Source of the DNA: an uncultured Bacteroidales bacterium | Lineage (GTDB): Bacteria; Bacteroidota; Bacteroidia; Bacteroidales; Bacteroidaceae | Assembly: GCA_902763865.1 (NCBI GenBank) | Contig: CACWTR010000002.1 | Span: forward strand, 12,343-76,342 | DNA length: 64,000 nt | Reading direction: 5' to 3' | Shown here: positions 8,482-52,313 of the stretch, in pieces | Position numbering within the stretch: position 1 is the first letter of the stretch | How the letters are laid out: each line of letters opens with the position of its first letter | Translations under genes and position numbers: made by a program | The notes under the pieces: generated by a model | Databases searched by the model: none | The model's input: the letters and a program-made list of their open reading frames with translations, nothing else | Told to the model about the DNA's origin: nothing

Positions 8482-8683
8482 AGTTTTAGATGTTTTCGGG
8501 TGTAAAGTTACGAAAAAAACACCAATCCCCAAAATTTTTCAGTTTAATTCGTGGCTTTTTGAGAGCAAGTGCGGTGCTTTCAATAATTTTGCCACTTCTG
8601 CATCGAGCAGAGGCTGTTCCGACCTGGCCAGGAGAACGAACCCTTCCACAAGAGGATGTGTCAAAACAATGAAGAAGTTTCCA

Positions 8684-8770
8684 AACCACGAATTGCACGA
8701 ATTACACGAATTTATAATTAGCTGGCAAACAGCAGTTGAATAATTCGTGTAATTCGTGCAATTCGTGGTT
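8684..8770. repeat. perfect 29-bp inverted repeat whose arms are three tandem CACGAATTR 9-mers
   Basis: AACCACGAATTGCACGAATTACACGAATT (8684-8712) pairs exactly with AATTCGTGTAATTCGTGCAATTCGTGGTT (8742-8770). The loop is 29 nt. Confidence 0.95.
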
Positions 8771-8814
8771 AAAGCAAAAAAGGGGGCTGTGCCATTCGTT
8801 CTGACACAGCCCCC
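8771..8814 (-). terminator. Rho-independent-type terminator read on the minus strand
   Basis: 10-bp stem GGGGGCTGTG (8782-8791) / CACAGCCCCC (8805-8814). On the minus strand it is followed by TTTTTTGCTTT. Confidence 0.5.
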
Positions 8815-8839
8815 TGAAATGCGGTTCATCATCTCACGA

Positions 8840-8914
8840 CACGTCAAAACGGGTTGTTTCGCATGTGAAACAATTTGTTTCCTCTGTGGAAACAAAAAGT
8901 TTCGTGAAGGAAAC
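8840..8914 (-). repeat. ~75-nt dispersed element: three tandem GTTTC-N6-7-GAAAC palindromic units plus a CCCG-N4-GACGTG flank (inverted copy)
   Basis: The reverse complement aligns unit by unit with 43763-43838, including GAAACAATTGTTTCAC and GAAACAACCCG....GACGTG. Confidence 0.8.
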
Positions 8915-9061
8915 ATTAATCGATACCACTTGGAGTTTAATGACTTAATGCGTTCAATGCACAATTATACCCTGGGGACTGCCTGATTTACGCAGGTACG
9001 CGATAATCAGTCAATGAATAAATAATTCTAACTTGTGCCTTGATTTTTCACATGTCTTTTG

Positions 9062-9069
9062 TAACTTTG
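9062..9069 (+). promoter_or_regulatory. candidate -7 box TAACTTTG for the WYL gene
   Basis: TAnnTTTG match 23 nt upstream of the ATG at 9092. Confidence 0.45.
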
Positions 9070-9091
9070 CACCAAATTAACGAATTTTGCT

Positions 9092-10024
9092 ATGGCAAAG
9101 AACCGCCTGCGCCTGAGCGAAGCGAAGAACCTTATCAACAAATATGTTTGGCTGGTGGACACCATCTATAGGGCCCGACGAATCACCTTCGAGGAAATCA
9201 ACCAGAAGTGGCTCGACCAGGAGATGGACACGAAGCCCATACCCATCCGCACCTTCCACAAATGGAAGATTGCGGCCGAGGACATGTTCAACCTCGTCAT
9301 CGAGTGTGAGCGCAAAGGCGGCTACCATTATTATATAGATAATGTGGAGGAAGTCAGGCGCGGAGGGCTTCGCAGCTGGCTGCTCAAGACCATCTCCGTC
9401 AGCAACCTGCTGCTGGACAGCCAGTCCATCAAGGACCGCATCCTCCTCGAGGATGTTCCTTCAGGGCAGGACGATTTGGCGCTCATCCTCGAAGCGATGA
9501 AGACGAACACCCAGCTTCGCATCACCTACCAAAGCTATTGGCGCGAAGAGAGTTACACATTCAACGTCCATCCCTATTGCGTGAAGCTCTTCAAGCAACG
9601 CTGGTATCTGGTTGCACTCAGCCCGCACCTCAACCGCATCATGATTTATGCCCTCGACCGCATCTTCGACATCGCCAAGCTCGACGGCGTGACCTTCACG
9701 ATGCCCGACGACTTCTACCCCGAGGACTTCTTCTACAACTACTACGGCATCATCGCCGGCACCAAGCGTAAGCCTGAAAAGGTCAGACTGAAGGTTTCCG
9801 CAAGCCAAGCAAACTACCTCCGCTCCCTGCCGCTCCACGACACCCAAGAGGAAACGGAAAGGAACGAAGCTTTCAGCATCTTCACCCTTCGCATCTGTCC
9901 CGAATTCGACTTCTATCAGGAGATTCTGTCGAATGGCGAAGATGTCGAAGTGCTCGAACCAATCTGGCTCCGTAAGGAGATAGCAGGAATGATAAACAGA
10001 ATGTGGAACAAATATAACAAGTAA
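9092..10024 (+). CDS. WYL-domain transcriptional regulator (HTH-WYL-WCX architecture)
   Basis: N-terminal HTH-like region (IPIRTFHKWKIAAEDMFNLVIECERKGGYHYYI). WYL core FKQRWYLVAL. C-terminal extension. First gene of the island. Confidence 0.85.
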   Translation: MAKNRLRLSEAKNLINKYVWLVDTIYRARRITFEEINQKWLDQEMDTKPIPIRTFHKWKIAAEDMFNLVIECERKGGYHYYIDNVEEVRRGGLRSWLLKTISVSNLLLDSQSIKDRILLEDVPSGQDDLALILEAMKTNTQLRITYQSYWREESYTFNVHPYCVKLFKQRWYLVALSPHLNRIMIYALDRIFDIAKLDGVTFTMPDDFYPEDFFYNYYGIIAGTKRKPEKVRLKVSASQANYLRSLPLHDTQEETERNEAFSIFTLRICPEFDFYQEILSNGEDVEVLEPIWLRKEIAGMINRMWNKYNK

Positions 10025-10035
10025 AAATTTCATTT

Positions 10036-10731
10036 ATGTACATGACAATCAGCGACGTAACCCTAAAATATCTTTGTCAAAAGTATCGCCATGACATTGG
10101 ATTGGGTACAAACAAATTCCTTCCTGGTATAAAAATCCGCTATGTAGCAGCAAACAAACATTTCGGCTATGCCTATTTCGGAGATTTTTTCTTCTTTGGC
10201 GATGACTTTTATGTTTGGGAGAAAGACGACAAATATGCAGCAGACCATAATCAGGACATCGTTGAGGAAGTATTTGGCGATGAATGCAAAGGGCGTGGCT
10301 ATGCCCGCAGAGTCATATTTGCCGGTGTTTTGACGGATTTTACCGACGACAATGGAGAAGGAATATACACTGGTGATGTTATAAAGGTAGAAATGAAGGA
10401 CGAATACACAAGATATTTTGCTGTTGGAGCCTGGAGTTATGAAGATGGCAAAGGAGAGTATTGCTTCATCCTCGACAACCACAATTGGTCGTTGGAAGAT
10501 TGTCAGAGGCAGCATTATCAGATGACACGTGTGGGCACAGTGTTTTATCAGTTGGACGCGAGTGATTCAATTCGGGTCAACCATCGTGTCATGAACTTTA
10601 ATAGATGGAGAGATACAGAAGAAGACAGGCTGCAAAAAGTCTTAATGGCAAAATACACACCCAACTTCGACCAGGAATTCTGGAGATATAGAGGACTTGA
10701 AATACTGGGAGTAGAATTTGACTGGAAATAA
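10036..10731 (+). CDS. hypothetical protein with a YopX-like motif; paralog of 11998-13050
   Basis: Shares IRY..FGYAYFGDF, FAGV.T.F.D.NG..IYTGDVI and RVGTVF with the second copy. The D.NG..IY.GD(I/V) pattern recalls phage YopX proteins. AT-rich. Confidence 0.6.
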   Translation: MYMTISDVTLKYLCQKYRHDIGLGTNKFLPGIKIRYVAANKHFGYAYFGDFFFFGDDFYVWEKDDKYAADHNQDIVEEVFGDECKGRGYARRVIFAGVLTDFTDDNGEGIYTGDVIKVEMKDEYTRYFAVGAWSYEDGKGEYCFILDNHNWSLEDCQRQHYQMTRVGTVFYQLDASDSIRVNHRVMNFNRWRDTEEDRLQKVLMAKYTPNFDQEFWRYRGLEILGVEFDWK

Positions 10732-10744
10732 AATAATTATAACT

Positions 10745-11290
10745 ATGAAAACAGAAAAAATTAACATCGGACAAATTGGAGAAACAGCTGTAGTATTGGA
10801 ACTTCTCAAGAAGGGTTTTGACGTTATCAACATCAATAATTCCTATCAGAATTACAAGAATGCAGATTTAATTTGTATGAATCATGGTACAGGAAAGAGT
10901 GTGATGATACAAGTCAAGACGGGTACATCTCATAATATTTTGGTAGGTTTTACATCAGAATTGGATGGCACAGTTCCTAAATTAGAAGAAAAAGTGATAG
11001 GGCCATGGGTGTTTGTTTTTATGAATAAGCATGATTATGGCATGAAGTTTTATGTGCTGACTAGAGAAGAAACCATAGAACTTATTAAAACAAGCTGCGA
11101 TTGGTATGCAAATGAATGGAACCGCCAGTTGAAAAATAAACCATTAATCGGTGTTGAGGTGGATTGGCTGGAAGCAAAACCTTCTGTAGCTTCAAAGCCA
11201 AATGCTAAGAAACAACATTCTGAGTATAAGAGTACGTTGTGTCAAACATCAGAGAACAAGTGGGAGAAAATAATAGGTTTACTATATTGA
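10745..11290 (+). CDS. PD-(D/E)xK-fold nuclease-like protein (Hjc/restriction-endonuclease-like core)
   Basis: GQIGETAVVLELLKKGFDV ... ADLIC ... VMIQVKTG gives E / D / QxK spacing typical of the fold. ATG at 10745 (the track TTG start at 10718 is less likely). AT-rich. Confidence 0.55.
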   Translation: MKTEKINIGQIGETAVVLELLKKGFDVININNSYQNYKNADLICMNHGTGKSVMIQVKTGTSHNILVGFTSELDGTVPKLEEKVIGPWVFVFMNKHDYGMKFYVLTREETIELIKTSCDWYANEWNRQLKNKPLIGVEVDWLEAKPSVASKPNAKKQHSEYKSTLCQTSENKWEKIIGLLY

Positions 11291-11795
11291 TGTAAACGGA
11301 GATAAGAAGGAATTTGCAGCAATAGATTTTGAGACCGCCAATAATGAGCGCAGTTCGGTTTGCTCTGTTGGGGTGGTTATCGTTCGTAACGGCGAGATAG
11401 TCGATTCGTTCTACTCCCTCATTCAGCCCGAGCCGAACTACTACAACTATTGGTGTTCACAGGTTCATGGCCTTTGCCGGGAAGACACAGAAGATGCCCC
11501 CATCTTCCCTGATGTCTGGGCACAGATAGAGCCGCTGATAGAGGGTCTGCCCCTTGTGGCCCACAACAGGCCCTTCGACGAGAGTTGCCTCAAAGCCGTC
11601 TTCCGCGTCTATCGGATGGACTATCCCGACTATGAGTTCCTCGACACACTTTGTGTCTCCCGTCGCAAGTTCCCTTCCCTGCCGAACCACCAGTTGCAGA
11701 CCGTCGCCCAGGCCTGCGGCTTCTGCATGAAGAACCACCACCACGCCCTCGCCGACGCCGAGGCATGTGCCTGGATAGCAAGGGAGATACTGTAA
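11286..11795 (+). CDS. DEDDh (DnaQ/epsilon-like) 3'-5' exonuclease; start codon non-canonical or lost
   Basis: Exo I AIDFETAN (11319-11342), Exo II LVAHNRPFDESCL and Exo III HHALADAEA are all intact. The frame is open only from 11277, with no ATG/GTG/TTG before Exo I. ATT at 11286 overlaps the upstream TGA. Confidence 0.75.
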   Translation: MDVNGDKKEFAAIDFETANNERSSVCSVGVVIVRNGEIVDSFYSLIQPEPNYYNYWCSQVHGLCREDTEDAPIFPDVWAQIEPLIEGLPLVAHNRPFDESCLKAVFRVYRMDYPDYEFLDTLCVSRRKFPSLPNHQLQTVAQACGFCMKNHHHALADAEACAWIAREIL

Positions 11796-11922
11796 CGACA
11801 AACAAAGTGCTCATCGAAAAGAGCAGAAATTAGCAAAAGCGCTCATCCAAATGAGCAATTTTACAGAAAGAATACAAAGTAGATATTGTGAATAACGTGC
11901 AAAATATACACGATAAAGATAG

Positions 11923-11997
11923 CAAGAGGAACTCTCTCTTGGACTTCGCAAGGAGAAATTGAATAGAATGTGGAATAAAAAGAAAAATAAAGAAACT
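11923..11997 (+). pseudogene. remnant of the 3' end of a second WYL-regulator gene
   Basis: Translates QEELSLGLRKEKLNRMWNKKKNKET. The intact WYL C-terminus is WLRKEIAGMINRMWNKYNK. AGAATGTGGAAYAAA is shared. Confidence 0.6.
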
Positions 11998-13050
11998 ATG
12001 GATTTCCATTTCAACAAGTTTAGCTTTTGGGGCATTCAAGATTTATGCCGTACTCATTACAGAGAAATCTTGCAACGCAAGAATTTAAAGTCTGTTATTG
12101 ATGGTAGAAAAGTGCGTTTCATTGATCCACTTGGCGAATTCTGCTATGCAGACTTTGGTGATTTCTATAACGGTAGCATGGGTACAATGATGCTTGTCAC
12201 ACGCGAGAAAAAGTACGCACAGTTTCATGAACCTGATGAGCTATCTAATACTCTATGGTCAACTATTCCTGTGTTTTATGCAGGCGTTGAGACCAAATTT
12301 AGAGATGAAAATAATAACATGATTTTTACAGGTGATGTGGTGACATATAAAGGATGGACATCAATGGTTAGATTTTTTGGTGATTATACAAGGCCTGGAT
12401 TAGCAGGGGATAATTGTGAAATACTTTTTGAAGATTTAGAACCAATTCATAAGATAGGGACTGTCTTTTCAGATATACCCATCTCGCTACCTCGAGGCTT
12501 TGATTATAATTTTTTCCAATGGCCATTAGAACGTTTTGTTCCTCAAGGAATCAGTATTGATGAAATGATTGCAAGAGCGCAGAAATCATACAAAAAACCG
12601 CATTTCGCAGATGAATTGCCAAAGTTGAAACGATGGAAACGCAATGTATATGAAAATATCGCCGAGACTTTGACACAAGATGATATTCTTGTTTACTTTA
12701 TAGGCGATGAGGTGGAAGATGAAGAGTATGGCGTGTACAATGAGATTCTTGCTGATTATATACCTGAATCATTCAAGGGGAAAGAACTTACACTCCATTT
12801 GCCAGAAGATAAATGGGAACTGAAGAGTTGGAAGGAGCTGATTAATGATTTCTTATTGACAGCTCATTTTAACCCTGACAAAAGATATGTGTTCTGCGAT
12901 TTCAGAAAGCAACTCGGAATAACCAAAAGGATTGAACATGCATTCGCTATGACGTTCTATGATTGGTATGAGTACAATATCCCTAATGTTGCTCTGCCAT
13001 TATGGATATACATATGCCATGTAGGACATGATTGTATAGGACGCGATTGA
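11998..13050 (+). CDS. hypothetical protein, YopX-like paralog 2 with a long C-terminal extension
   Basis: VRF..FCYADFGDF, FYAGVETKFRDENNNMIFTGDVV and KIGTVF align with 10036-10731. The ATG at 11998 (MDFHFNKF) is preferred over the TTG at 11959. Confidence 0.7.
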   Translation: MDFHFNKFSFWGIQDLCRTHYREILQRKNLKSVIDGRKVRFIDPLGEFCYADFGDFYNGSMGTMMLVTREKKYAQFHEPDELSNTLWSTIPVFYAGVETKFRDENNNMIFTGDVVTYKGWTSMVRFFGDYTRPGLAGDNCEILFEDLEPIHKIGTVFSDIPISLPRGFDYNFFQWPLERFVPQGISIDEMIARAQKSYKKPHFADELPKLKRWKRNVYENIAETLTQDDILVYFIGDEVEDEEYGVYNEILADYIPESFKGKELTLHLPEDKWELKSWKELINDFLLTAHFNPDKRYVFCDFRKQLGITKRIEHAFAMTFYDWYEYNIPNVALPLWIYICHVGHDCIGRD

Positions 13051-13095
13051 GAAATCCTTGCCGATGCAGAAGCATGTGCATGGAAGCAAGGATGA
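13051..13095 (+). pseudogene. remnant of the 3' end of a second DEDDh exonuclease gene
   Basis: In frame right after the TGA of the previous ORF: EILADAEACAWKQG*. The intact gene reads ALADAEACAWIAREIL*. The nine identical residues differ only at synonymous third positions, shifted to A/T. Confidence 0.65.
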
Positions 13096-13142
13096 AACGA
13101 TGAGTTATTATCAAAAATGTTTGGAAGAATTATAATAAGTTG

Positions 13143-13150
13143 TATCTTTG
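13143..13150 (+). promoter_or_regulatory. candidate -7 box TATCTTTG upstream of the DUF262 operon
   Basis: TAnnTTTG match ~195 nt upstream of the ATG at 13346. Confidence 0.4.
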
Positions 13151-13345
13151 CAAAGGAAAACTAAACAACAAACACTATGAGTAAAGTATTTCGCATTACA
13201 CCCAAACGCATTAAGCGGGCAAATGGGAACGGTGCTGACAATGACAATCACATTCAACACAGAATCATACACCAACTACCCTGTTTTATAACGGGGAAGC
13301 CAAAATCCAAAAGAAATATATGTACTTAAATTAATCAGCCGAAAA

Positions 13346-15301
13346 ATGGTAAAAAACAATATTTTATATAGTATCAAGAATCTTTTCTCTAAAGAAGGAG
13401 GATTCTTAAATGAAGGAGAGTATTTCAATATTCCGGAATATCAGCGTGGCTACAAATGGTCGGCACAAAATATCACAAAACTTTTGGATGATATAAGCTC
13501 CTTTGAGACCAATGGGGATTCTGAGAAATTTTATTGTCTTCAGAACATAACGATTGTTTACAATGAGAATAAAGGAGAATATAATGTTGTGGATGGTCAA
13601 CAGCGACTAACAACGCTTACAATACTTCTATCCTATTTTGATTGCTACGACTTGATAAAAAACAAATTACGTTATTCTATTCGAGAAGACACTCGTACTT
13701 TTCTTGAAGAATATATCTACAAGAATCGGAAAGAAGAATGGAAGTCATGGAATTCAGACTGGAATTCATTTATACAGTTAAAACCAGAATGTGATTTTCA
13801 GGATATTTTTTATATATTTACAGCATATAATACTATTGCAAAATGGTTCTCGAACCATGATGTCAATGGGTTCCTAGAAAAGCTTCTTCACAATGTTGAT
13901 ATCATAGTTAACCAACCAAAGACTAAGGATGAGACAAAACTATTTGCCAACTTGAACGGCGACAAAGTTTCCCTAGATGGTGCCGACATCGTTCGAGCAA
14001 TGATTGTTACACATGTAGCAAAAGAAGAGTCCGATGAGATTAGGGATGAGGACAAATTGCTTGTAATGCTTAACGAGCGTCGGGTAAGAATAGGCATGAC
14101 ACTTGATAATATTACTAGATGGTGGACAATTAAAGATCATGTTGACTATTACAAGCCATTTATTAAAGGCATTAAATCGGCAGAGGGGGAGGTCTTGAAA
14201 TTTGATGAAAATGATAATGCAATTAATCGCCTTTACAAGCTTTACATTGCTACCCAGAACTATACTCAGAAAAACCTTACCATAAGTCTTGAAAAGTTTG
14301 AGCATCCTTATCCAGATAACTCTTTTTCTGTTTTGTATGAAAAACTGGTGTGGTTGCAGCGTCTAATTGAGTCTTGGTATGATGATAAAGTTCTTTATCA
14401 TCTTATTCCCTTCTGCATTATATATTGTAAAAAGACTTTTTTCTGGATGGTAGATACATGGAAGGAATCCACTAGAAAAACATTCGAAGAGAGGTTGAAA
14501 GAGGTAATTCGGGAATGGATTGAATCTATGAAAGAACAAAGGCTTTATAGTAAAGAACTATCTAGTACAGAAAATCCAAACGAGACTATGATTAGTGATA
14601 ATGCGACTCTCTCGTTGGCAGAAGACAATGAAAAACTTGCAAGTACCGAGAATTGGTATGAGAGTTCTTATTTGGAGCCGGTTCTAGTTCTTTTGGATAT
14701 CATAGCCATTTGTAAGTCTGAATCCAAGGATAAATTGCCTCCATTGTTTTTTGTAGCTTTCAAAGAAGACGAAGAACACATTTTCCCTCAAACTCCTATA
14801 GAGAAAATCAATCAATCCGAATACACCCGTCAAACAAATAAACTAAGGAAATACATTGATATAGTAAACGATTACATACAGAAAGCCAATGAATCCCCAA
14901 TTGAATTTGATGAGGCTGATACTCATTGGGATGATGAAAAATGGCGAGAAGAACAGCGAAAACGTTACAATGAAATAATCCTTAAATACATGCCGATTAA
15001 TTCTTTAGGAAACATGGCTCTTCTAAATGAATCTGTGAATAGAGGCTACGGTAACGATTTCTTTACTGAGAAAAGAATTGATGTGATGAAGGCTTATCGA
15101 GTAGGGGGATACATTAGGCCGCATGTTATGGATGCATTTAACAAACAGTTTTTAGAAAGGTCCGATTTAGACGATGACTTTTCTAGAATGAAATGTTGGG
15201 AGAAAGAAGACATCTTGGCACGCAGAGAATATATGGTTAGAACAATATGTGATTTTTTAAATATTCAACTTAAAGATAAAAAGAATGAAACAGACCAATA
15301 A
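13346..15301 (+). CDS. GmrSD-like DUF262 (ParB-like NTPase/nuclease) plus DUF1524 (His-Me finger) protein
   Basis: N-terminus FNIPEYQRGYKW ... VVDGQQRLTTLTILL. C-terminus EEHIFPQTP ... NSLGNMALLNESVNRGYGN. Confidence 0.85.
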   Translation: MVKNNILYSIKNLFSKEGGFLNEGEYFNIPEYQRGYKWSAQNITKLLDDISSFETNGDSEKFYCLQNITIVYNENKGEYNVVDGQQRLTTLTILLSYFDCYDLIKNKLRYSIREDTRTFLEEYIYKNRKEEWKSWNSDWNSFIQLKPECDFQDIFYIFTAYNTIAKWFSNHDVNGFLEKLLHNVDIIVNQPKTKDETKLFANLNGDKVSLDGADIVRAMIVTHVAKEESDEIRDEDKLLVMLNERRVRIGMTLDNITRWWTIKDHVDYYKPFIKGIKSAEGEVLKFDENDNAINRLYKLYIATQNYTQKNLTISLEKFEHPYPDNSFSVLYEKLVWLQRLIESWYDDKVLYHLIPFCIIYCKKTFFWMVDTWKESTRKTFEERLKEVIREWIESMKEQRLYSKELSSTENPNETMISDNATLSLAEDNEKLASTENWYESSYLEPVLVLLDIIAICKSESKDKLPPLFFVAFKEDEEHIFPQTPIEKINQSEYTRQTNKLRKYIDIVNDYIQKANESPIEFDEADTHWDDEKWREEQRKRYNEIILKYMPINSLGNMALLNESVNRGYGNDFFTEKRIDVMKAYRVGGYIRPHVMDAFNKQFLERSDLDDDFSRMKCWEKEDILARREYMVRTICDFLNIQLKDKKNETDQ

Positions 15302-17051
15302 TGCATTCCTAAAGGATGAAAATATATTAACTCTTTTCTCTTTGAATAATTTAATTATTCCAGAGATTCAACGTGAATATGTTTGGGGAAGAAACACAAA
15401 TGTTCTTGAAAAATTCTTAAACGACCTCAAAGAGAGTGCTGATGTATGCGATACATGCCATCATGTGCATGGGAATAATAATATCAATATAGGATTCTTG
15501 TACTCATATAAACCACCATACGTCAAACTAGAAAATGATAGATATCTTGATGAATTTCTTATTGATGGACAACAACGAATTACTACAATCTTTCTTTTGC
15601 TTCTAACCCGTGCTGTGGTTGAAAACAGAGTAGAGGATTTCTGCAACATTATTAGATATGACGAAGCAGGTAAACATATGAGTTTTAGCTACAAAGTCCG
15701 CAACCTAACCCAAGACTTCCTATTAATGCTGATTCGCCATATAATAGAACACCCATACAAAGAAACGCTAAATTTCTTCCTTACAAAGGAGTATCCCTTT
15801 TGGTTTTTGGCAGAATATAATGAAGATCCAACCATCGCTGCTATGGCGAGTGCAATTAGTTCTATGTTGAAGATATTCCCATCTAATGAATACTATTTCG
15901 ACTATTTACTTGAAAGCGTTCATTTTTGGCATTTTAAAACCGAAGCTACTTCCCAAGGAGAAGAACTCTATATCAGTATGAATTCTCGTGGAGAACAACT
16001 ATCCAGTAATGAAACACAAAAAGCTGCATCCCTGCCCCCAAAAGATCAAATTATTTGGGGCAGGAAATGGGAAGAGTGGCAAACATTTTTCTGGAGGAAT
16101 CGTAATAAAGAAGCGGTAAACATTAATGCTGACAAGGGTCTCAATCAGTATTTAAGTTGTATCGATTCTCTAGAAAGATTTAGATATGAATTATCAACAA
16201 AAGACACAGTATCTGAAGAATACCTTGGTAATTTTCATGCAGACATTAAAGACATAGATATTTACATGGATGCCTTGCGTTTTATATGCGACAAAAAGAA
16301 TTTCAAACTTGATTCTTATTCCTATCAAGAATGGTATGATTCATTTATGGCTGACATATGGACGGAGCTGAATAAAAACGAAAGCAGTTGGTATGTTTCT
16401 AAATCTACCTATAATAACGATGCCATAGCGAAGAATAAAGCTATGCTGTTCTGGTCGTGGATGTATTATTATAAATTGAAACGTGATAACACCATTGATT
16501 CATCAGAAATGTTAAGGCTGATGCATTTCTACTATGTCAGGTATCATTGCTATAAAAGATCCGCAAGACCGCTCTTCTCTATTGTTGAGGATGTGGCAAA
16601 AAACGGCTTTTGTGTGTTTAAACAACTTAACGGCAATAATGAAGTAATTGATGATGAAGACAAGGAAGGTGAAACTGACTCAAGATTGTTTAGCAATGAA
16701 GAAATAGTTCTTTCAAAAATATTCAATTTGAATCCAACCAGTCCTTTTGCTTTAGAAGCATCATGCTGGAAATTGCAAGATTTACCTTATTTAAAGGACG
16801 GCAAGAAAGTCGGAGGGAATACTATTAATGAGTTTCTTAATTATATTGCCATAGATAATGAACAAAAAGCTATCCAGGATATGGATACTTTATATTCAGA
16901 CTTCAAATCACTTTTTGATAATGCCGAGAACTTCAACAAAGTGAAAAGCTTATTACTATTTTATTGCGACGATAATGGAGATCCGTTCTGGCAGCGACAA
17001 TCTCCATACTATTATAGTAATTATGAATGCAGTTCAAAAAAAGAATCGTAA
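15285..17051 (+). CDS. second DUF262-domain protein (no DUF1524 motif seen)
   Basis: LIIPEIQREYVWGR ... LIDGQQRITTIFLLLL ... MNSRGEQLS. The start overlaps the previous stop by 17 nt. It ends just after an A7 tract. Confidence 0.8.
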   Translation: MKQTNNAFLKDENILTLFSLNNLIIPEIQREYVWGRNTNVLEKFLNDLKESADVCDTCHHVHGNNNINIGFLYSYKPPYVKLENDRYLDEFLIDGQQRITTIFLLLLTRAVVENRVEDFCNIIRYDEAGKHMSFSYKVRNLTQDFLLMLIRHIIEHPYKETLNFFLTKEYPFWFLAEYNEDPTIAAMASAISSMLKIFPSNEYYFDYLLESVHFWHFKTEATSQGEELYISMNSRGEQLSSNETQKAASLPPKDQIIWGRKWEEWQTFFWRNRNKEAVNINADKGLNQYLSCIDSLERFRYELSTKDTVSEEYLGNFHADIKDIDIYMDALRFICDKKNFKLDSYSYQEWYDSFMADIWTELNKNESSWYVSKSTYNNDAIAKNKAMLFWSWMYYYKLKRDNTIDSSEMLRLMHFYYVRYHCYKRSARPLFSIVEDVAKNGFCVFKQLNGNNEVIDDEDKEGETDSRLFSNEEIVLSKIFNLNPTSPFALEASCWKLQDLPYLKDGKKVGGNTINEFLNYIAIDNEQKAIQDMDTLYSDFKSLFDNAENFNKVKSLLLFYCDDNGDPFWQRQSPYYYSNYECSSKKES

Positions 17052-17461
17052 GATGTCAGGCATTTCTGAATTTTTATAGAGAATATAGAGAAAAAAAGAA
17101 TCTCGATATGATGCTGGTTGAGAAAAGAAATATATTCTTCTCAGAATTTCGTGTTTTCAATTTCGATGAAGTGCAAGTCCCCTCGATGAAACATATAGTT
17201 ATCGTTTATGATGCTATATTGTCAAATAACTCAAATTTTACGCAGGTTTGGAATAACGACTCTTTGGCATTTAGTGATAATATTACAGAAGAGGATATAT
17301 CAAAAAAACAATATCTGTATAGGAGTCAAATAAAATTATGGAGTCTTAAACGATATTTTGGTTCTAATTATCAAGAAATTGTACTTCCAAAAGGATGGCG
17401 TCAAAATTTAACCGAGGAATATTCAAATATCTCTTTTGAGTTTTTGAATTATGATAATTAA
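17027..17461 (+). CDS. hypothetical 144-aa ORF, possibly the frameshifted C-terminus of the preceding DUF262 protein
   Basis: Overlaps the previous ORF by 25 nt across A7 (17036-17042). No recognisable motif. Same AT-rich composition. Confidence 0.45.
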   Translation: MQFKKRIVRCQAFLNFYREYREKKNLDMMLVEKRNIFFSEFRVFNFDEVQVPSMKHIVIVYDAILSNNSNFTQVWNNDSLAFSDNITEEDISKKQYLYRSQIKLWSLKRYFGSNYQEIVLPKGWRQNLTEEYSNISFEFLNYDN

Positions 17462-17476
17462 CGTCGAATTTAAATT

Positions 17477-17989
17477 ATGACCACCTTCATCTCCAACTCC
17501 GACCACTACAAAGAGGTGCTGTCGCGGGTGAAGGCCGTGAAGCACACGCTTTGGATTGGGACTGCCGACATTAAAGACCTTTACGTTGAGATGGGCAAGG
17601 AAACAAAACCTTTCTTGGCTCTCATTGCCCAGCTCATTCGGAAGGGTGTGGAGGTGCGGCTGATTCATGCAAAGGAGCCTGGGCCGAACTTCAGGGAAGA
17701 CTTCGACAAGTACCCTGTTCTATATGATCGCTTGGAGCGTGTGCTTTGTCCACGAGTCCACTTCAAAATGCAAGTCTTTGACTGCAAGGAGGTGTATGTG
17801 GGTAGCGCGAACCTTACTGGTGCCGGCATCGGAATGAAGACAGACAACAAGCGAAACTTCGAGGCTGGCATCCTGACCGATGACCCGGAAATCGTGGAGC
17901 AGGCCATGAACCAGTTCGACGAAGTATGGATAGGGAAACATTGCAAGATCTGCAAACGAAGAGACTTCTGCCTTGACCCAATCGCATAA
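17477..17989 (+). CDS. single-HKD phospholipase D-family (Nuc-like) nuclease
   Basis: HFKMQVFDCKEVYVGSANLTG fits HxK-x4-D-x6-GSxN. C-terminal HCKICKRRDFC Cys cluster. 15 nt after the previous ORF. GC-richer than its upstream neighbours. Confidence 0.85.
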   Translation: MTTFISNSDHYKEVLSRVKAVKHTLWIGTADIKDLYVEMGKETKPFLALIAQLIRKGVEVRLIHAKEPGPNFREDFDKYPVLYDRLERVLCPRVHFKMQVFDCKEVYVGSANLTGAGIGMKTDNKRNFEAGILTDDPEIVEQAMNQFDEVWIGKHCKICKRRDFCLDPIA

Positions 17990-18018
17990 ATCTTTTCGAT
18001 AAAAGTTCACTTCCTTTC

Positions 18019-18052
18019 GACCTCTGCCCCTAAACGGCAGAGGTCTTTGCTT
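18019..18052 (+). terminator. hairpin plus weak T-tract after the PLD gene
   Basis: GACCTCTGCC (18019-18028) / GGCAGAGGTC (18036-18045), followed by TTTGCTT. Confidence 0.5.
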
Positions 18053-18094
18053 ACTTCGCACTCAGATTCGTTTAATCTCAAAAGACAAAGTAAG

Positions 18095-19735
18095 ATGGCT
18101 ACGAAAAAGAAGATGGACTTGCTCACGGCTGTGGAGCAGATTGTGGACAAAGCAAAGGGTTCGGGACTCAGCAGCGAGTTCTATCGCAAGGCTGACAAAT
18201 ACATTAAATATGTGTCAGAAAGGTTAGATATGACAAAGGAACAATGCGTCATGATGGCTTTGTTTATCGACAATAGCCACGACGACACTATCCTAATCAG
18301 CGAATTGGGTAAGTTCCTTGAGTGCCGCACAACCCGACTCATCAAGTACATGGCTGAGATTGATGTTCTGGAGAAACGTGAATATGTCAGATGCAACCGA
18401 AACCGTGGCATCAGCTACAAAGTTCCCATGGAAGTGATTGAGGCCTTCAAGAACAACGAGAAGTTTGTGGCGAAAGACTGCTCCGGGCTTTCGTGTTCGG
18501 AGCTTTTCGGTGAGATAGAAAGTCTTTTTGAGAGAAGGGATGAAAAGGATATAACGTACGTGGCTCTGGTGGAAAAGATGAATCATCTGTTTGACAGCAA
18601 CAAGCAACTTCTGTATGTTCAGAAGGTGAAAAGCTATAATTTCTGCAAAGATGACGAGATGATGCTGATTCTCTTTTCACATCTGTTCGTCAACAACTGC
18701 GATGATAACATCGGATTTCACGACATCGACTTCCTCTTTGATAGCAAAAGGCATTGGAGGTTAGAAAAAGCTAGCTTTGAAAAAGGTGACCACATTCTTC
18801 TGGAAGAGCATCTCATAGAGAACAATAACAGTGATGGCTTCTCTGACAGGGTGTCCTTCCGAATGACTAATCAGGCAAAACGGGAGCTTTTCAGCGAGCT
18901 CGGCTTGGCTGCTTTAAGGAAGAACGCCCAGCGAAGAGACATCATCAAGTCGGAGAAAATCGCTCCGAAGAAACTCTTCTATGGCGAGAAAGTCGGCGAA
19001 CAAATTGCGGAATTAGAGAAACTACTGGAGGAAGAAACCTACAACGGGATTCGTACACGCATGAAGGAGACTGGCTTCCGTTGCGGCTTCACTTGCCTTT
19101 TCTATGGTGAGCCAGGAACGGGCAAGACAGAGACCGTGCTTCAGTTGGCAAAGCAGACTTGCCGAGACATCATGCAGGTGAACATCTCGCAGATCAAGAG
19201 CATGTGGGTTGGCGAAAGCGAGAAGAACATCAAGCAGCTCTTCGACGACTATCGGGCAAGGGCTATGGAAAGCGAGCTTACGCCCATCCTGCTCTTCAAC
19301 GAGGCCGATGCCATCATCAACAAACGTCGGGAAGGAGCCGAGAGAGCCGTTGATAAGATGGAGAACTCCATTCAGAACATCATCCTCCAGGAGATGGAAA
19401 CGCTCGACGGCATCCTCATCGCCACAACGAACCTCGCTCAGAACATGGACAAAGCCTTCGAGCGCCGCTTCCTCTACAAGATAAAGTTCGAGAAGCCGAC
19501 CATAGAAGCCCGCATGAGCATGTGGCACGAAATGATTCCTGCCCTCGGAGAGGAAGACTCGCGGGCTTTGGCTTTGAAGTACGACTTCAGCGGCGGTCAG
19601 ATAGAGAACATCGCCAGGCATTATGTCATCGGCAACATCTTGCACGGATGCTCCGATGATATCGTGAAGGAACTCTCTGCTTATTGCGACAGCGAGAAAT
19701 TGCAATCGAAGGAAACACGTAGAATTGGGTTCTGA
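18095..19735 (+). CDS. AAA+ ATPase with an N-terminal winged-helix-like domain
   Basis: Walker A GEPGTGKT. Walker B ILLFNEADAI. CDC48/FtsH-type AAA core. N-terminal ISELGKFLECRTTRLIKYMAEIDVLEKREYV looks wHTH-like. ATG at 18095 (MATKKKMD). Confidence 0.85.
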   Translation: MATKKKMDLLTAVEQIVDKAKGSGLSSEFYRKADKYIKYVSERLDMTKEQCVMMALFIDNSHDDTILISELGKFLECRTTRLIKYMAEIDVLEKREYVRCNRNRGISYKVPMEVIEAFKNNEKFVAKDCSGLSCSELFGEIESLFERRDEKDITYVALVEKMNHLFDSNKQLLYVQKVKSYNFCKDDEMMLILFSHLFVNNCDDNIGFHDIDFLFDSKRHWRLEKASFEKGDHILLEEHLIENNNSDGFSDRVSFRMTNQAKRELFSELGLAALRKNAQRRDIIKSEKIAPKKLFYGEKVGEQIAELEKLLEEETYNGIRTRMKETGFRCGFTCLFYGEPGTGKTETVLQLAKQTCRDIMQVNISQIKSMWVGESEKNIKQLFDDYRARAMESELTPILLFNEADAIINKRREGAERAVDKMENSIQNIILQEMETLDGILIATTNLAQNMDKAFERRFLYKIKFEKPTIEARMSMWHEMIPALGEEDSRALALKYDFSGGQIENIARHYVIGNILHGCSDDIVKELSAYCDSEKLQSKETRRIGF

Positions 19736-19779
19736 TTGCAAATTATTTACAGATGGCTTGGATGTAAGGGAAAATGTCG

Positions 19780-19787
19780 TAACTTTG
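19780..19787 (+). promoter_or_regulatory. candidate -7 box TAACTTTG for the Fic gene
   Basis: TAnnTTTG match 18 nt upstream of the ATG at 19805. Confidence 0.4.
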
Positions 19788-19804
19788 CAAAAAGTTCATG
19801 AACT

Positions 19805-20803
19805 ATGGAGGAAAATAAGATAATAATCTATCAGACAGAGGACGGACAGACGCAGATTGATGTCAGGCTGGAGAATGAGACTGTATGGCTTACGCAAGCT
19901 CAGATGGCTGAACTGTTTCAGAAGGACAGAACAGTGATAACTCGTCATATTAACAATGTATTTAAGGAAGGAGAATTGGAGAAAGAAGAGGTATGTGCAA
20001 AATTTGCACACACCACTCGACATGGAGCTTTGACGGGTAAAACACAAATGCAAGAGACTGTTCTATACAACCTTGATGTTGTCATTTCCGTTGGCTATCG
20101 TGTAAAGAGCAAGCGCGGCACAGCTTTCCGCATCTGGGCTCGTAAGATTCTGAAAGACTACCTCATCAAAGGCTATGCCATGAACGAGCGTATTCGCAAA
20201 GAGCAGATAGGTGAGCTTCGTCAGCTGGTCGGAATGCTTGGGCGTGCCGTACAAAGCCAGCCTCTGCTCTCCAGCGATGAAACGAATGCCCTCTTCGAAG
20301 TGGTGACGGACTACACTTATGCCCTCGACACGCTCGACAACTACGACTACGAGCGCCTGACCATCGAGAAGACCACGAAGGAAGAACCCTTTCATGCCAC
20401 CTACGAAAATGCTATGAAAGAGATTCGTCGCCTTCGCGAGAAGTTTGGGGGCTCAGTCTTGTTCGGCAACGAGAAGGACGACTCTTTCAAGAGCAGCATC
20501 GGACAGATATACCAGACCTTCGGCGGCGAAGAACTCTATCCCAGCGTAGAGGAGAAAGCCGCCATGCTCTTGTATCTCGTCACCAAGAACCACTCCTTCA
20601 GCGACGGAAACAAACGCATCGCAGCCACCTTGTTCCTCTGGTTCCTCAACAACAACGGCATTCTCTATCGCAAAGACGGCTCAAAACGTCTCGCCGACAA
20701 CACCCTTGTAGCCCTGACCCTGATGATTGCCGAGAGCAAGACAGAAGAAAAGGACGTGATGGTAAAGGTTGTGGTGAACCTGATTAATCAGAGGAATAAT
20801 TAA
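19805..20803 (+). CDS. RhuM-like N-domain plus Fic/Doc-family protein
   Basis: N-terminus IIIYQTEDGQTQIDVRLENETVWLTQAQMAELF is RhuM-like. C-terminus HSFSDGNKRIAA is a Doc-type Fic motif. Confidence 0.85.
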   Translation: MEENKIIIYQTEDGQTQIDVRLENETVWLTQAQMAELFQKDRTVITRHINNVFKEGELEKEEVCAKFAHTTRHGALTGKTQMQETVLYNLDVVISVGYRVKSKRGTAFRIWARKILKDYLIKGYAMNERIRKEQIGELRQLVGMLGRAVQSQPLLSSDETNALFEVVTDYTYALDTLDNYDYERLTIEKTTKEEPFHATYENAMKEIRRLREKFGGSVLFGNEKDDSFKSSIGQIYQTFGGEELYPSVEEKAAMLLYLVTKNHSFSDGNKRIAATLFLWFLNNNGILYRKDGSKRLADNTLVALTLMIAESKTEEKDVMVKVVVNLINQRNN

Positions 20804-20853
20804 AAAAACAAATGTGAATTGCAGGAATTCTTATAAAATTACTAATTAAATCT

Positions 20854-22005
20854 ATGAGTAAGGTGATTACAGAGAAGAGAGAAAAGTATGCCAACTGGGT
20901 AAAAAGAGTTTGTGACTTCATAAGTCAAATTGGTCCTCAATTAAATCTTCCTGTTGGAGCGATGCAATCAGACATTTCTGAAGCAATAGAGAATGATATT
21001 AATATCATGTTCCTTGGCCATGACCCGCATGAAGTACCGAAGGAAGACTATAAATTTGAAGATGGAGATTATATTAAAGAACGTTTTGAGACAGGAAATC
21101 CTTGTTGGGGGGACAGAAATGCCAAATGGCCTATCTGGAAAAATCTACGTGATAATTTTATAAGTGTTTATGGGGAATCTTCGCTTATGGATGACACAAA
21201 ACATATGGTCTTTACTAATGCTGTTTTCTTCACTGGAGACAATATAAAGTTAGTATTAGATCAAATTGGTACGAGTGTCGAATGGAAATGCTTAGATTAT
21301 ACGAATGAATTGATATTTGACATTCTTTATCCCAAGATTCTTGTTTGCTTCTCTGTAAGTGATGTGTTCGATAAACTTATCAAAACGATAAATAGAAAAA
21401 GCGAAAATAAACTAACTGTTCATCGATTCAAACCTTATAATATCAAACACATTTGTGCATTAACACAATATAATGGGACTATTATTTTAGGAATTCCACA
21501 CCCAAGTGGTGCTCATGGCATATTCGGTTCGTTACCTGCAATTGTACGTATCATTAACGATTTGTCAAAGGGTGATAAAATAGAGAACATCGTTGCAACT
21601 AAGAATCTGTTCCTTAATTCTCAAGAGAAGAATCAATCTGTGATTCCAAGAATAGATAAAACGAATATTGTACAACAAGTTATATCATCAGGCTATCTTG
21701 AGGCCTATGAAGAAAAGAACCATAGGTATAAACTGAATGAAATATACGGCATAACGATAACCGATACACGAAAAGGTTATATAGCAATAAGACATATTAA
21801 ATATGATTATAAAGGTTATGCCAACACTCAAGATAAAGAAGTACTTGCTATTAAGGATATGTTGAAAGGACGGAAATACAATACTTCTGAAAATGCTTGG
21901 ATAGGGGAAAAAACATTTTCTCAGTTTGGCAATAACGATAACGAGATTATAGAACGAATTTGCAAGGAAATAAAAGAACTTAAAGAAGTAATCCAGAAGA
22001 TGTAG
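20854..22005 (+). CDS. hypothetical protein with a uracil-DNA-glycosylase-superfamily-like N-domain and an unknown C-domain
   Basis: Element order matches the UDG fold: IMFLGHDPHE (compare family-1 GQDPYH), MVFTNAVFF, CLDYTNELIFDILYPKILVCFS, ILGIPHPSGAHG (compare HPSP). AT-rich. From recall only. Confidence 0.5.
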   Translation: MSKVITEKREKYANWVKRVCDFISQIGPQLNLPVGAMQSDISEAIENDINIMFLGHDPHEVPKEDYKFEDGDYIKERFETGNPCWGDRNAKWPIWKNLRDNFISVYGESSLMDDTKHMVFTNAVFFTGDNIKLVLDQIGTSVEWKCLDYTNELIFDILYPKILVCFSVSDVFDKLIKTINRKSENKLTVHRFKPYNIKHICALTQYNGTIILGIPHPSGAHGIFGSLPAIVRIINDLSKGDKIENIVATKNLFLNSQEKNQSVIPRIDKTNIVQQVISSGYLEAYEEKNHRYKLNEIYGITITDTRKGYIAIRHIKYDYKGYANTQDKEVLAIKDMLKGRKYNTSENAWIGEKTFSQFGNNDNEIIERICKEIKELKEVIQKM

Positions 22006-22024
22006 TTTTCTTCAAATAATAACA

Positions 22025-22066
22025 CTTTTCACGCTTTGAAAATAACTTTTATGACGCGTCGTGCGA
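22025..22066. repeat. truncated (about 1.5 unit) copy of the 21-bp ATTTTCA-N5-TGAAAAT array
   Basis: CTTTTCACGCTTTGAAAAT (22025-22043) matches unit 3 of the 77-166 array at 18 of 19 positions. A degenerate unit follows 21 bp later. The CGTCGTG..GTTTT flank is similar. Confidence 0.7.
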
Positions 22067-22241
22067 GGTTTTGTCTTTCGCCCCCATCGGTTATGGAAAA
22101 AGAGGGCAGCAGTTTCGTGCCGAAGACTTCCGGCTGCCGCTACCGGCTGCGCAGACCGGAGGAAAAGGCTCTCTGGAGGACGTTTCGCCATAAAAGGCCA
22201 AATAATTCTGCATTCTTTACGGCTTATTCCTCTTTTTTTTG

Positions 22242-26491: not shown

Positions 26492-26584
26492 AACCACGAA
26501 TTACACGAATTGCACGAATCAAGGAATGCATGATAACTGGTAACTTCATCTTTTTTTCTCGTGCAATTCGTGTAATTCGTGGTT
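26492..26584. repeat. second copy of the CACGAATTR 9-mer hairpin (26-bp perfect arms), terminator position
   Basis: AACCACGAATTACACGAATTGCACGA (26492-26517) pairs exactly with TCGTGCAATTCGTGTAATTCGTGGTT (26559-26584). Lies between the stop at 26479 and the start at 26607. Confidence 0.9.
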
Positions 26585-48744: not shown

Positions 48745-48836
48745 GAATAAAGCAGGGCTCGCTCATGCTTTATCGAGCGTGAGCGAGCTCGAACAAAATT
48801 CAAAGTAGTGATTAAGTAGACAAGGAGGACACAACG

Positions 48837-49019
48837 ATGAAGAAAACATATTTGCAGCCCACGATGATGGTTGTCACGCTACAGCAGCAAAGCATCATCT
48901 GCACCAGTAGCGATATGAATCGTGTCAACAGCAATGCCGACCTCGACTACGGTGGCGGCGGCAGCGGCCCAGCCCGTGCCCGCAGCTACGGCGGCACCGA
49001 TTGGGACAACGAATGGTAA
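48837..49019 (+). CDS. small hypothetical protein (60 aa)
   Basis: AAGGAGGA 7 nt upstream. Core-like GC. MKKTYLQPTMMVVTLQQQSIICTSS N-terminus and acidic/aromatic C-terminus DWDNEW. Followed by structured repeats. Confidence 0.45.
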   Translation: MKKTYLQPTMMVVTLQQQSIICTSSDMNRVNSNADLDYGGGGSGPARARSYGGTDWDNEW

Positions 49020-49043
49020 CACAACACGTGAATTCGACGACAT

Positions 49044-49138
49044 TAATTAATGATAATTATATGAGCTATTACGTGGTAATTCGTGTTTTACCTTTAACAT
49101 ATAATTACCATCAATGACCCATTAATTATCATTAATTA
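49044..49138. repeat. nested inverted repeats; the right arm is a tandem ATTAATTATC 10-mer
   Basis: TAATTAATGATAATTA (49044-49059) pairs with TAATTATCATTAATTA (49123-49138). Inner GGTAATT (49075-49081) pairs with AATTACC (49103-49109). Confidence 0.8.
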
Positions 49139-49156
49139 TCGGTTTAGGAGGTCTTT

Positions 49157-49240
49157 AACAACGGATTTAACGGATTTAACGGATTGTGTTATACAGGTGT
49201 AGCATAAATCCGTATAATCCGTTAAATCCGTTGTTTTTAT
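49157..49240 (+). terminator. 29-bp-arm hairpin built from AACGGATTT 9-mers, followed by a T-tract
   Basis: AACAACGGATTTAACGGATTTAACGGATT (49157-49185) against AATCCGTATAATCCGTTAAATCCGTTGTT (49207-49235), then TTTTAT. Confidence 0.65.
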
Positions 49241-49485
49241 ATATAATGGTCTTTTGAAGGAAGCGCACTCCCGCTATTTGAGATTTAGTCGTCCTTCGGA
49301 CGAGAAATTGAACAAATCTTTTCAAGTCAAACAAATCAAGGCATAGAAATACAGCCTGTCAGATTTGAACAGATTTGCCAGAAAGTGCTGAAAAATTTCG
49401 GGAATATGATTATCCTTCCAAGTCTGGTGTATGATTTTAGGTATCCTTATCATGTTCATCCCCCTTTCTTGTACTCACATTCTTC

Positions 49486-50364
49486 TTAGAGTCTTCGGAC
49501 AGTCGCGTTAATGGAAGTGCCGCCAGCCTCCCATGCTATCTTGATTCGTCTGAGGGCGGGATTCCCGTCGTCCGTGTCGTAGTCGATGTTATAGCGTATA
49601 AGAACGATATGTTGGTCGGATATCAGTCGGGCTCTACCCTTGAATTTTGTTATGTGAAGAGTCTGACTGTCAAAATAGGTCACACCCGTAACCTCGCCTA
49701 CATCGTACTTCCTGCCGTCATACTTAAAAAGTCGAGTTTCCCTGTTCCTGTCAAAGACGAAACGATAGACACCCCGACCGGAAGCGTCAACAACGTGATA
49801 CGCAGAAATATCGTAATATGCGACTGTCGTGTTATATTGTTTTAAGGGATACAATGGTTCTGCCAAATGAACCCGTAATTTGATGTTTGGTAAGAGCGTC
49901 CCTATGGGAACCTGATATGTCCATGGTGCCCAAATCGGATTTAATCTGGCAAACGCTCTGAGGTACTTTCCCAAATAGATGCTGTCATTGCGAAAGAGTT
50001 TGTATGGTTCTTCGCAGGTGAAGTCGCTCGTTGATTCATAAAAGCCGGGATATGACTCATCGAAGGTGATACCCGCTTTAGCCGGGATAGTGCATCTGAC
50101 AGATAACGGAGCCAGAGAGTCTCGCAGGAAGATCGCGTCTATCTGATACGTCCCCTCCTTGTATTGCATCCTGTCTTCCTGAAACTGTGCGATGACTTGC
50201 TTCAGCAACTTTTTGGGGTGCTTGACAGGCTTGATGGAAAGCAAACTGATAGAATCCTCCTTTACAAGAGATAAGGAGAAATCTTCCAAATTCGTTTGAG
50301 CCATAACCGTTATTACAGAAATCAAAGAAGACAAGAATAAAAATAAAATGATGCGCCTATTCAT
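49486..50364 (-). CDS. secreted hypothetical protein, paralog of 51353-52165
   Basis: Signal peptide. Shared LSIKPV..P..LL..V......M pattern with the paralog. AT-rich. Confidence 0.65.
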   Translation of the reverse strand: MNRRIILFLFLSSLISVITVMAQTNLEDFSLSLVKEDSISLLSIKPVKHPKKLLKQVIAQFQEDRMQYKEGTYQIDAIFLRDSLAPLSVRCTIPAKAGITFDESYPGFYESTSDFTCEEPYKLFRNDSIYLGKYLRAFARLNPIWAPWTYQVPIGTLLPNIKLRVHLAEPLYPLKQYNTTVAYYDISAYHVVDASGRGVYRFVFDRNRETRLFKYDGRKYDVGEVTGVTYFDSQTLHITKFKGRARLISDQHIVLIRYNIDYDTDDGNPALRRIKIAWEAGGTSINATVRRL

Positions 50365-50453
50365 AGGTCTAATTATCTAATCCTAACTATACAGACGATA
50401 TTCTTCGGGAATCACAAAATACCCACTAAAAAATCGGCAGAGAATCGTGAAGG

Positions 50454-52165: not shown

Positions 52166-52228
52166 ATCAAGTGCAAAGATAATGTATTTTTTAGAAGTGC
52201 CTGTTTGCATTTTCCTGTGCCCTTTCGT

Positions 52229-52295: not shown

Positions 52296-52313
52296 CGGAA
52301 GTACGTGCTGCGT

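Follow-up and report, generated by a model that had tools for sequence, protein, structure and literature searches.

WYL-regulated defence islands are a known kind of locus, described mostly from Proteobacteria. WYL repressors of defence systems that sense single-stranded DNA (ssDNA) are on record (PMC11662680, PMC9122601), ssDNA sensing has been shown for CapW (PMC11662680) and DriD (PMC10853764), and relatives of BrxR co-localise with diverse defence islands (PMC9122601). Variable defence hotspots have in turn been described for P2/P4 (PMC9122126). Here, we analyse a 64,000-nucleotide (nt) stretch of a Bacteroidales chromosome with a G+C (GC) content of ~60% (contig CACWTR010000002.1; hereafter, the window) and, specifically, the four-gene segment at positions 9092-11795. 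With a probability of about 0.6, we read this segment as the head of a strain-variable, WYL-regulated defence island with a nested composite structure, in which a cassette of two genes, encoding a YopX-like protein and a PD-(D/E)xK nuclease-like protein, is inserted into a backbone formed by a WYL regulator gene and a DEDDh exonuclease gene.

The WYL regulator of the window resembles BrxR, CapW, DriD, and PafBC in its WYL and WCX domains, and in its position at the head of a defence-gene island; its own promoter has a conserved palindrome, a candidate operator. In contrast to the winged helix-turn-helix (wHTH)-WYL-WCX regulators, its family has a DEDDh exonuclease as a very frequent partner, an association that goes unmentioned in PMC9122601, and its host lineage, within the Bacteroidales, uses promoters of the Bacteroidetes type. 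At the level of the island, the locus is similar to the P2/P4 hotspots and to hotspot 5 of the SXT integrative and conjugative element (ICE), in that exchangeable defence genes are enclosed by conserved ones and several alleles per site occur within a species, whereas the framing genes here are a regulator, an exonuclease, a PLD-family gene, and a RhuM-Fic gene.

A cassette inserted between the WYL and exonuclease genes

The four genes lie on the plus strand at the head of a lower-GC island (~8.5-22.1 kb). The WYL gene (9092-10024) is followed after 11 nt by the YopX-like gene (10036-10731), which is followed after 13 nt by the nuclease-like gene (10745-11290) and then by the exonuclease frame (11277-11795). 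These coordinates and gaps bear out an earlier reading made from the letters of the window (the sequence-only reading), which had described four tightly packed open reading frames (ORFs) behind a WYL regulator. The identical four-gene stretch is present on 17 contigs, the named ones of which come from rumen metagenome studies.

The order WYL, YopX-like, nuclease, exonuclease recurs in at least six species-representative genomes (L025-L028, L031, and L032), as well as in several metagenomic contexts with unrelated flanks, and the complete four-gene module is found in the cultured Segatella bryantii DSM 11371 (L025). This recurrence is far beyond chance. The order is thus conserved in other genomes, and the association of the four genes proposed by the sequence-only reading does not fall on this count.

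The surveys anchored on either pair nevertheless show that the four genes are not inherited as the one module that this reading had proposed as a candidate. For the genome scan, an alignment of the nuclease replaced that of the diverse YopX-like proteins, the latter having no stretch conserved enough, and 53 species genomes were recovered, almost all of them Bacteroidales. Just upstream of the nuclease gene lay a YopX-like gene in 29/53 and a gene for a protein of ~185 amino acids (aa) in 8/53; a WYL gene was present in 9/53 and an exonuclease gene in 6/53. The exonuclease-anchored survey comprised 80 metagenomic loci, 73 of them informative: the WYL gene was directly adjacent in 40, separated from the exonuclease gene by an insert in 8, and absent in 25, and a YopX-like gene was found inside four of the eight inserts. 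The WYL-exonuclease pair and the YopX-like/nuclease pair are, in other words, independent of each other.

Comparison with cassette-less alleles sets the extent of the inserted low-GC two-gene cassette at 10022-11305 (plus strand). Four such loci (L078, L160, L163, and L165) align to the window until ~10015-10020 and again from 11306-11307. Sister alleles share 94-97% nt identity with the window through the WYL gene (to ~10015-10021), and the four that keep the exonuclease share 94-96% from 11306 onward; at the same chromosomal site, L160, L161, L163, and L165 all have the WYL and exonuclease genes adjacent, without the middle genes. Relative to L078, the window has one more insertion, which covers 11792-19759 and separates the exonuclease gene from RhuM-Fic.

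The site varies further within the species. Among contigs whose lactaldehyde reductase genes are identical, six different islands occupy it, each headed by a WYL gene; near-identical copies of this flanking gene are labelled as belonging to Bacteroidaceae or Bacteroidales metagenome-assembled genomes. The island of L160 and L161 continues with exonuclease, DUF2441, PDDEXK_4, and PLD genes and, further on, RhuM-Fic; that of L163 with exonuclease, an 81-aa ORF, and Mrr_cat; and that of L165 with the exonuclease. In L162, the WYL gene is followed by a gene for a 319-aa protein, and in L159 by a YopX-like gene of a longer type (ORF5 type, below), Nmad2, Nmad3, a 112-bp exonuclease stub, two GmrSD genes, and PLD.

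Base composition separates the two units as well. The GC content of the cassette genes is 0.42 and 0.35, against 0.53 for the WYL gene, 0.57 for the 3' part of the exonuclease gene, and 0.52 for the PLD gene. Across hosts whose flanks range from ~0.55 to 0.62, the nuclease gene stays at 0.41-0.43 and its YopX-like neighbour at 0.40-0.46; the exonuclease gene ranges from 0.43 to 0.60 across loci. Around both units lie GmrSD/DUF262, PLD, PDDEXK_4, Mrr_cat, RhuM-Fic, AbiE, AbiL, and restriction-modification genes, and the claim that the WYL regulator heads a cluster in a defence-gene neighbourhood thus agrees with what surrounds it (GmrSD, PLD, Mrr, and RhuM-Fic). That the regulator, exonuclease, PLD, and RhuM-Fic genes form a backbone around slots of exchangeable cargo is close to shown; hundreds of Bacteroidales contigs from rumen and gut have this backbone.

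The regulator, its promoter, and the exonuclease start

The backbone gene at the head of the island (9092-10024, plus strand) encodes a 310-aa regulator with a conserved N-terminal region followed by WYL and WCX domains. Pfam places WYL (PF13280) at residues 129-194 (54.8 bits against a cutoff of 21.8; 9.5e-15) and WCX (PF25583) at residues 228-304 (49.9 bits against 23.9; 4.1e-13), while residues 1-118 are conserved in alignment A3. A family profile built from 14 homologs matches DriD (~1e-10; E 3e-10 to 1e-9) and PafBC (1e-9) in the PDB; no entry named BrxR or CapW appears among the hits at E <= 0.1, three of which are labelled only with the generic "WYL domain-containing protein". Judged by these profiles, the WYL-WCX part is nearest to DriD and PafBC and is not specifically BrxR/CapW-like, and the earlier assignment to the BrxR/CapW type is not upheld.

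The promoter region (9030-9069, plus strand) comprises an imperfect palindrome at 9030-9056, which is a candidate operator and in the window's class reads AACTTGTG-N11-CACATGTC, and a Bacteroidetes-type -7 box, TAACTTTG, at 9062-9069. When 47 distinct WYL upstream regions are aligned, the palindrome-containing block is their most conserved stretch; it reads AACCTCTGCCAC(A/G)NTTTGGCG in most loci and overlaps position -33, with a TAnnTTTG -7 box following it. Two sequence classes of this block match two classes of WYL protein, which fits a candidate autoregulatory operator. Separately, the WYL and RhuM-Fic promoters (9061-9089 and 19779-19807) have a 29-nt block in common, with 76% identity and the -7 box included, and the RhuM-Fic copy contains a perfect palindrome, AGTTCATGAACT. 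Both promoters may therefore be under common control.

The second backbone gene of the segment has lost its start codon. Its frame (11277-11795, plus strand) encodes a DEDDh 3'-5' exonuclease with an RNase_T match in Pfam (77.9 bits, 1.7e-21), the nearest solved relatives are the exonuclease domains of DinG and PolC, and Exo I-III are all in frame (AIDFE, HNRPFD, and H-ALAD). All relatives start with ATG-(A/C)(G/A)A-GAT-TTT-GCA. The window instead reads GAT-AAG-AAG-GAA-TTT-GCA, the ancestral ATG having become AAG at 11304-11306, and the first 60-70 nt at the 5' end are low in GC compared with 0.57 for the remainder. Between the TAG at 11274-11276 and the GTG at 11373 there is no ATG, GTG, or TTG, and this GTG lies downstream of Exo I (D at 11325-11327, E at 11331-11333). 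All seven independent contigs of the species that extend to the exonuclease start (L001-L007) show the lesion; therefore, it is not an assembly error. Based on this sequence, the gene is probably silent in the window, or its product truncated and inactive. The sequence-only reading had called a DEDDh exonuclease with all three motifs intact: the motifs are indeed there and in frame, but the first usable start lies past Exo I.

In two of the cassette-less alleles, L160 and L165, a GC-rich inverted repeat of GGAGCAAGG units lies between the WYL and exonuclease genes (~12480-12600 of the reverse-complemented locus). If the repeat acts as a terminator or attenuator, as it could, the exonuclease gene in these alleles would not simply be co-transcribed.

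The YopX-like protein and its nuclease-like partner

We know of no function for YopX itself, which is a common phage protein. The first cassette gene (10036-10731, plus strand) encodes a 231-aa YopX-like protein, a short form without the A1S_2505 domain carried by longer relatives. Its match to YopX (PF09643) in Pfam is marginal (23.4 bits against a cutoff of 22.4), and a relative, P0108, falls under the cutoff at 17.8 bits. An AlphaFold (AF2) model built from 34 homologs, with a predicted local distance difference test score (pLDDT) of 94, was compared with Foldseek. Against BFVD, the top matches are mostly viral "YopX protein" models (best E 7.9e-4, probability 1.0), whereas nothing significant is found in the PDB (best E 0.24), where the YopX-family entry 2ox7 appears at a probability of 0.63. 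Given the many matches to viral YopX models, "YopX-like" is the right name for the central beta-barrel, and the earlier call on this gene stands.

The protein shares with the YopX family (PF09643; SPbeta YopX and EF1440, PDB 2ox7) this central beta-barrel and the G-x-x-I-Y/F-T-G-D motif; it differs by additional helices at the N-terminus and a helical tail at the C-terminus. In a further contrast with the YopX family, its own family is chromosomal, often fused to A1S_2505, and followed by a nuclease gene. Encoding by phages or prophages is not borne out: the loci are chromosomal, and a tblastn search of 50,697 phage records gave no hit to the protein. Clustering at 50% identity leaves 153 representatives, which makes this a small family. 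The A1S_2505 domain stands at the N- or the C-terminus of longer relatives, and fusions of a YopX-like protein to the "A1S_2505 family phage non-structural protein" (NF049995) are represented by P0108, P0343, P0266, P0277, P0280, P0305, and P0353; the domain itself matched nothing in Pfam at E <= 0.01, and a search for a solved structure of it came back empty. Downstream of YopX-like genes, the partner is the PD-(D/E)xK gene, a gene for a 298-aa protein that matches GIY-YIG weakly, or Nmad2/Nmad3 (L159). Fragments of 69 aa (P0423 and others), whose identity to a portion of the YopX-like protein is 90% or more, also occur, on 64 contigs of up to 108 kb, which suggests that other strains often retain truncated remnants of the cassette.

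The second cassette gene (10745-11290, plus strand) encodes a 181-aa protein whose AlphaFold model (AF2, pLDDT 90) has the alpha-beta-beta-beta-alpha-beta core predicted for a PD-(D/E)xK nuclease, with a C-terminal extension. Foldseek matches the model to I-Ssp6803I (2ost, E 2.5e-4), 4tkd (E 8e-4), and 1gef (E 1e-3), and the matches include archaeal Hjc and the SPARDA nuclease. Sequence profiles stay below their cutoffs (PDDEXK_5, 14.6 bits against 26.1; YraN models, ~19 bits against 109-199). Across an alignment of 29 homologs, E13, D41, and Q56-V-K58 are invariant. The protein is similar to Hjc, I-Ssp6803I, and the SPARDA DREN domain in having a Glu on the first helix, an Asp on strand 2, and x-K on strand 3; it differs from them by a Gln in place of the second acidic residue and by an extra C-terminal domain of ~70 residues. 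Of the earlier description of an Hjc-like PD-(D/E)xK protein, the fold is confirmed by the Foldseek search, but the second acidic residue is missing. Mrr-type enzymes have D...QxK. In the phage genome collection, the nuclease has a single match, 38% identical, on an unannotated 5.5-kb faecal fragment.

The alternative upstream partner of the nuclease is an unrelated family of ~185 aa with the motif PL..EYEGW..REYWDD..EW (L035, L037, L047, L048, L053, L055, and L067), for which there is no Pfam match. We considered a "GVE(F/V)DW" motif shared by the YopX-like C-terminus, the nuclease C-terminal domain, and the N-terminus of the ~185-aa proteins as a common interaction module, but this was dropped: profile-profile comparison of the ~185-aa and YopX-like families gave nothing (probability 0.2). 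In their swapped YopX-like partners, swapped nuclease partner, and A1S_2505 fusions, the parts of the cassette recombine like the components of conflict systems.

The wider island and the reading of the locus

A second copy of part of the segment lies immediately downstream, as the sequence-only reading had noted in describing it as decayed. A 3' remnant of a second WYL gene (11962-11991, aligning to 9995-10025) and a 3' remnant of a second exonuclease gene (13056-13091, local alignment to 11747-11783) are real, and the YopX-like paralog of 10036-10731 that stands between them is intact; all three are on the plus strand. This gene (11998-13050, ATG at 11998) encodes a 350-aa protein of the ORF5 type, with a C-terminal extension. 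It is called as a 350-aa gene on 13 contigs and matches the hidden Markov model of alignment A2, which includes the gene itself, at E 2e-70. Relatives sit between WYL and exonuclease genes in L031, L032, L088, L105, L110, and L141. Next comes a DUF6140 pseudogene (13177-13329, plus strand), in which a three-frame comparison with the intact gene of L009 reveals two frameshifts; an intact DUF6140 gene (73 aa) follows the exonuclease gene in 15 related loci, and no literature on DUF6140 was found. The WYL and exonuclease stubs resemble the traces that recombination between two such islands would leave, and cargo exchange looks like the work of homologous recombination in the backbone genes (remnants 11962-11991 and 13056-13091).

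The plus-strand gene order of the island thus runs from the WYL/WCX regulator through the 231-aa and 181-aa proteins, the exonuclease frame, and the second YopX-like gene to the downstream cargo (13346-22005; Pfam and PADLOC), which consists of two GmrSD/DUF262 genes, a 144-aa ORF, the PLD-family gene, an IetA-like AAA ATPase gene, RhuM-Fic, and a 383-aa ORF. The nearest promoter-like -7 boxes upstream of the cargo gene blocks are at 13143 and 19780. The PLD gene (17477-17989, plus strand; Pfam/PADLOC) belongs to the backbone: together with ~90 nt past its stop (17483-18082), it is shared with sister strains and L078, as is RhuM-Fic, and 17483-18082 is common to most sister alleles (L159, L160, L161, and L163) at 90-93% identity. 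Inside this shared block, directly 3' of the PLD gene, is a strong hairpin at 18020-18050 (GACCTCTGCC ... GGCAGAGGTC, then TTTG).

No phage, satellite, ICE, integrase, tRNA, or attachment-site (att) repeats were found at the island: the window contains no tRNA genes, there is no integrase-like ORF within 8500-22100, and no direct repeats other than promoter motifs flank the island. Upstream of it and outside the four-gene segment, a 189-bp hairpin insertion (8622-8810, no strand) marks this strain's allele and is missing in 6/6 sister-strain alleles, whose blastn alignments jump from 8621 to 8811. It contains a perfect 29-nt inverted repeat (8684-8712/8742-8770), built from three CACGAATT-type 9-mers, and folds into a long hairpin (z of -9.2), and a related repeat stands at 26495-26520, after a gene ending at 26479. 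The insertion looks like an element of the miniature inverted-repeat transposable element (MITE) or repetitive extragenic palindrome (REP) type. A second lower-GC stretch occupies 48000-60000 of the window (GC 0.42-0.49 against ~0.60 around it).

Our reading of 9092-11795 as the head of a WYL-regulated defence island suggests how its parts might work. The WYL protein would bind the palindrome over its own promoter, and its WYL domain, by analogy with CapW, BrxR, and DriD, would sense ssDNA or another infection or damage signal and thereby alter transcription downstream. The cassette would be a self-contained two-component conflict system, with the YopX-like protein as sensor or adaptor and the PD-(D/E)xK protein as DNA-cutting effector; that it is a new small defence system is plausible. 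In relatives, the exonuclease may trim the 3' ends of DNA made during the response; the strain of the window probably makes no active form of it. A bolder extension, doubtful in our view though not far-fetched, holds that YopX-like proteins with interchangeable nucleases (PD-(D/E)xK, GIY-YIG-like, and Nmad2/3) form a new small anti-phage or anti-plasmid family in Bacteroidales, and that the very common WYL/exonuclease pair is a sensor and signal-processing head, in which the exonuclease would shape the ssDNA read by the WYL protein, controlling multi-slot islands with recombination-swapped cargo.

Several observations weigh against our reading of the segment as the head of a defence island. 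Neither cassette protein matches any PADLOC-DB v2 model, and many cassettes stand alone between housekeeping genes (RecJ, ABC-F, and zinc alcohol dehydrogenase). The upstream neighbours taken as controls also held defence genes (AbiE and PDC-S02; PADLOC); since this control set is not clean, the enrichment of defence genes downstream of the exonuclease is described here and not quantified. The exonuclease shows ~85-99% protein identity across many contigs, a slow pace of change if the gene serves defence; the search patterns were, however, biased towards close relatives. Residues 1-118 of the WYL protein have no Pfam or PDB sequence match and include no recognised helix-turn-helix. Lastly, because the acidic residue of (D/E)xK is the invariant Gln56, catalysis by the nuclease-like protein is not assured.

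The conservation of the exonuclease also bears on an unlikely alternative, namely that the locus is a DNA-damage-response or repair unit, in which ssDNA sensing by a WYL activator of the DriD/PafBC kind switches on an exonuclease of the proofreading type, and a recombination pair of phage origin, YopX-like protein and Hjc-like resolvase, has been recruited to the regulon. The best solved relatives of the WYL protein, DriD and PafBC, are indeed damage-response activators (PMC10853764), the exonuclease is very conserved and its GC content ranges from 0.43 to 0.60 across loci, the nuclease model matches Holliday-junction resolvases, with some relatives so named by JGI, and RecJ adjoins stand-alone cassettes in six loci. 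However, the locus is crowded with genes of the restriction type and changes from strain to strain within a species, the cassette is low in GC and patchy, the YopX-like family is small (153 representatives) with its 53 partner-nuclease loci almost all in Bacteroidales, and the locus is kept here although its exonuclease is probably inactivated. This last point also counts against the least likely reading that we considered, in which the four genes form one integrated WYL-controlled defence system with three interdependent effector genes: the exonuclease start is lost in the window while the cassette is intact, each pair occurs apart far more often than together, and sister strains hold the WYL-exonuclease pair without the cassette. 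Such a system would account for the same gene order in the six or more species genomes (L025-L028, L031, and L032) and the metagenomic contexts, for the operon-like spacing, and for the three YopX-like subtypes (short, A1S-fused, and ORF5-type) that fill the same WYL-exonuclease slot; a WYL/YopX-like fusion (representative P0244) points the same way but may be a read-through artefact.

The same filled (window) and empty (L160, L163, L165, and L078) alleles are what would be expected of a selfish homing-type cassette, in which the PD-(D/E)xK protein, as a free-standing homing endonuclease, cuts cassette-less alleles, for example at the WYL-exonuclease junction, and spreads by their repair, with the YopX-like protein as passenger or helper. 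The precise intergenic insertion between conserved genes, the low GC content and scattered distribution of the cassette, the best structural match of the nuclease model, which is the PD-(D/E)xK homing endonuclease I-Ssp6803I, and the GIY-YIG-like alternative partner, which belongs to another homing-endonuclease family, are all consistent with this proposal. We nonetheless hold it to be quite unlikely, given that the insertion contexts are many and unrelated, unlike those of a site-specific homing enzyme, that the cassette consists of two strongly conserved proteins encoded by genes with swappable partners, and that no target-site signature was found.

As for novelty, the sequence-only reading matched the combination to no named defence system, and our searches concur: the YopX-like protein hit none of the PADLOC families, the nuclease gave one hit at E 0.0099, and in the literature on YopX in defence, A1S_2505, DUF6140, and Bacteroidales WYL proteins, we found no paper describing this arrangement. 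The WYL/DEDDh pairing in Bacteroidales, the multi-slot backbone, and the YopX-like/nuclease cassette thus appear to be undescribed in PADLOC and the literature searched. Since the complete module is present in the cultured Segatella bryantii DSM 11371, where the cassette ortholog occupies L025 7272-8534, the candidate is open to direct testing.

The cassette exchanges its components as known immune systems exchange sensors and effectors. If it defends against phages, it would be a new system from an under-sampled phylum and, if this is true, would give the first functional handle on YopX, a widespread phage fold.

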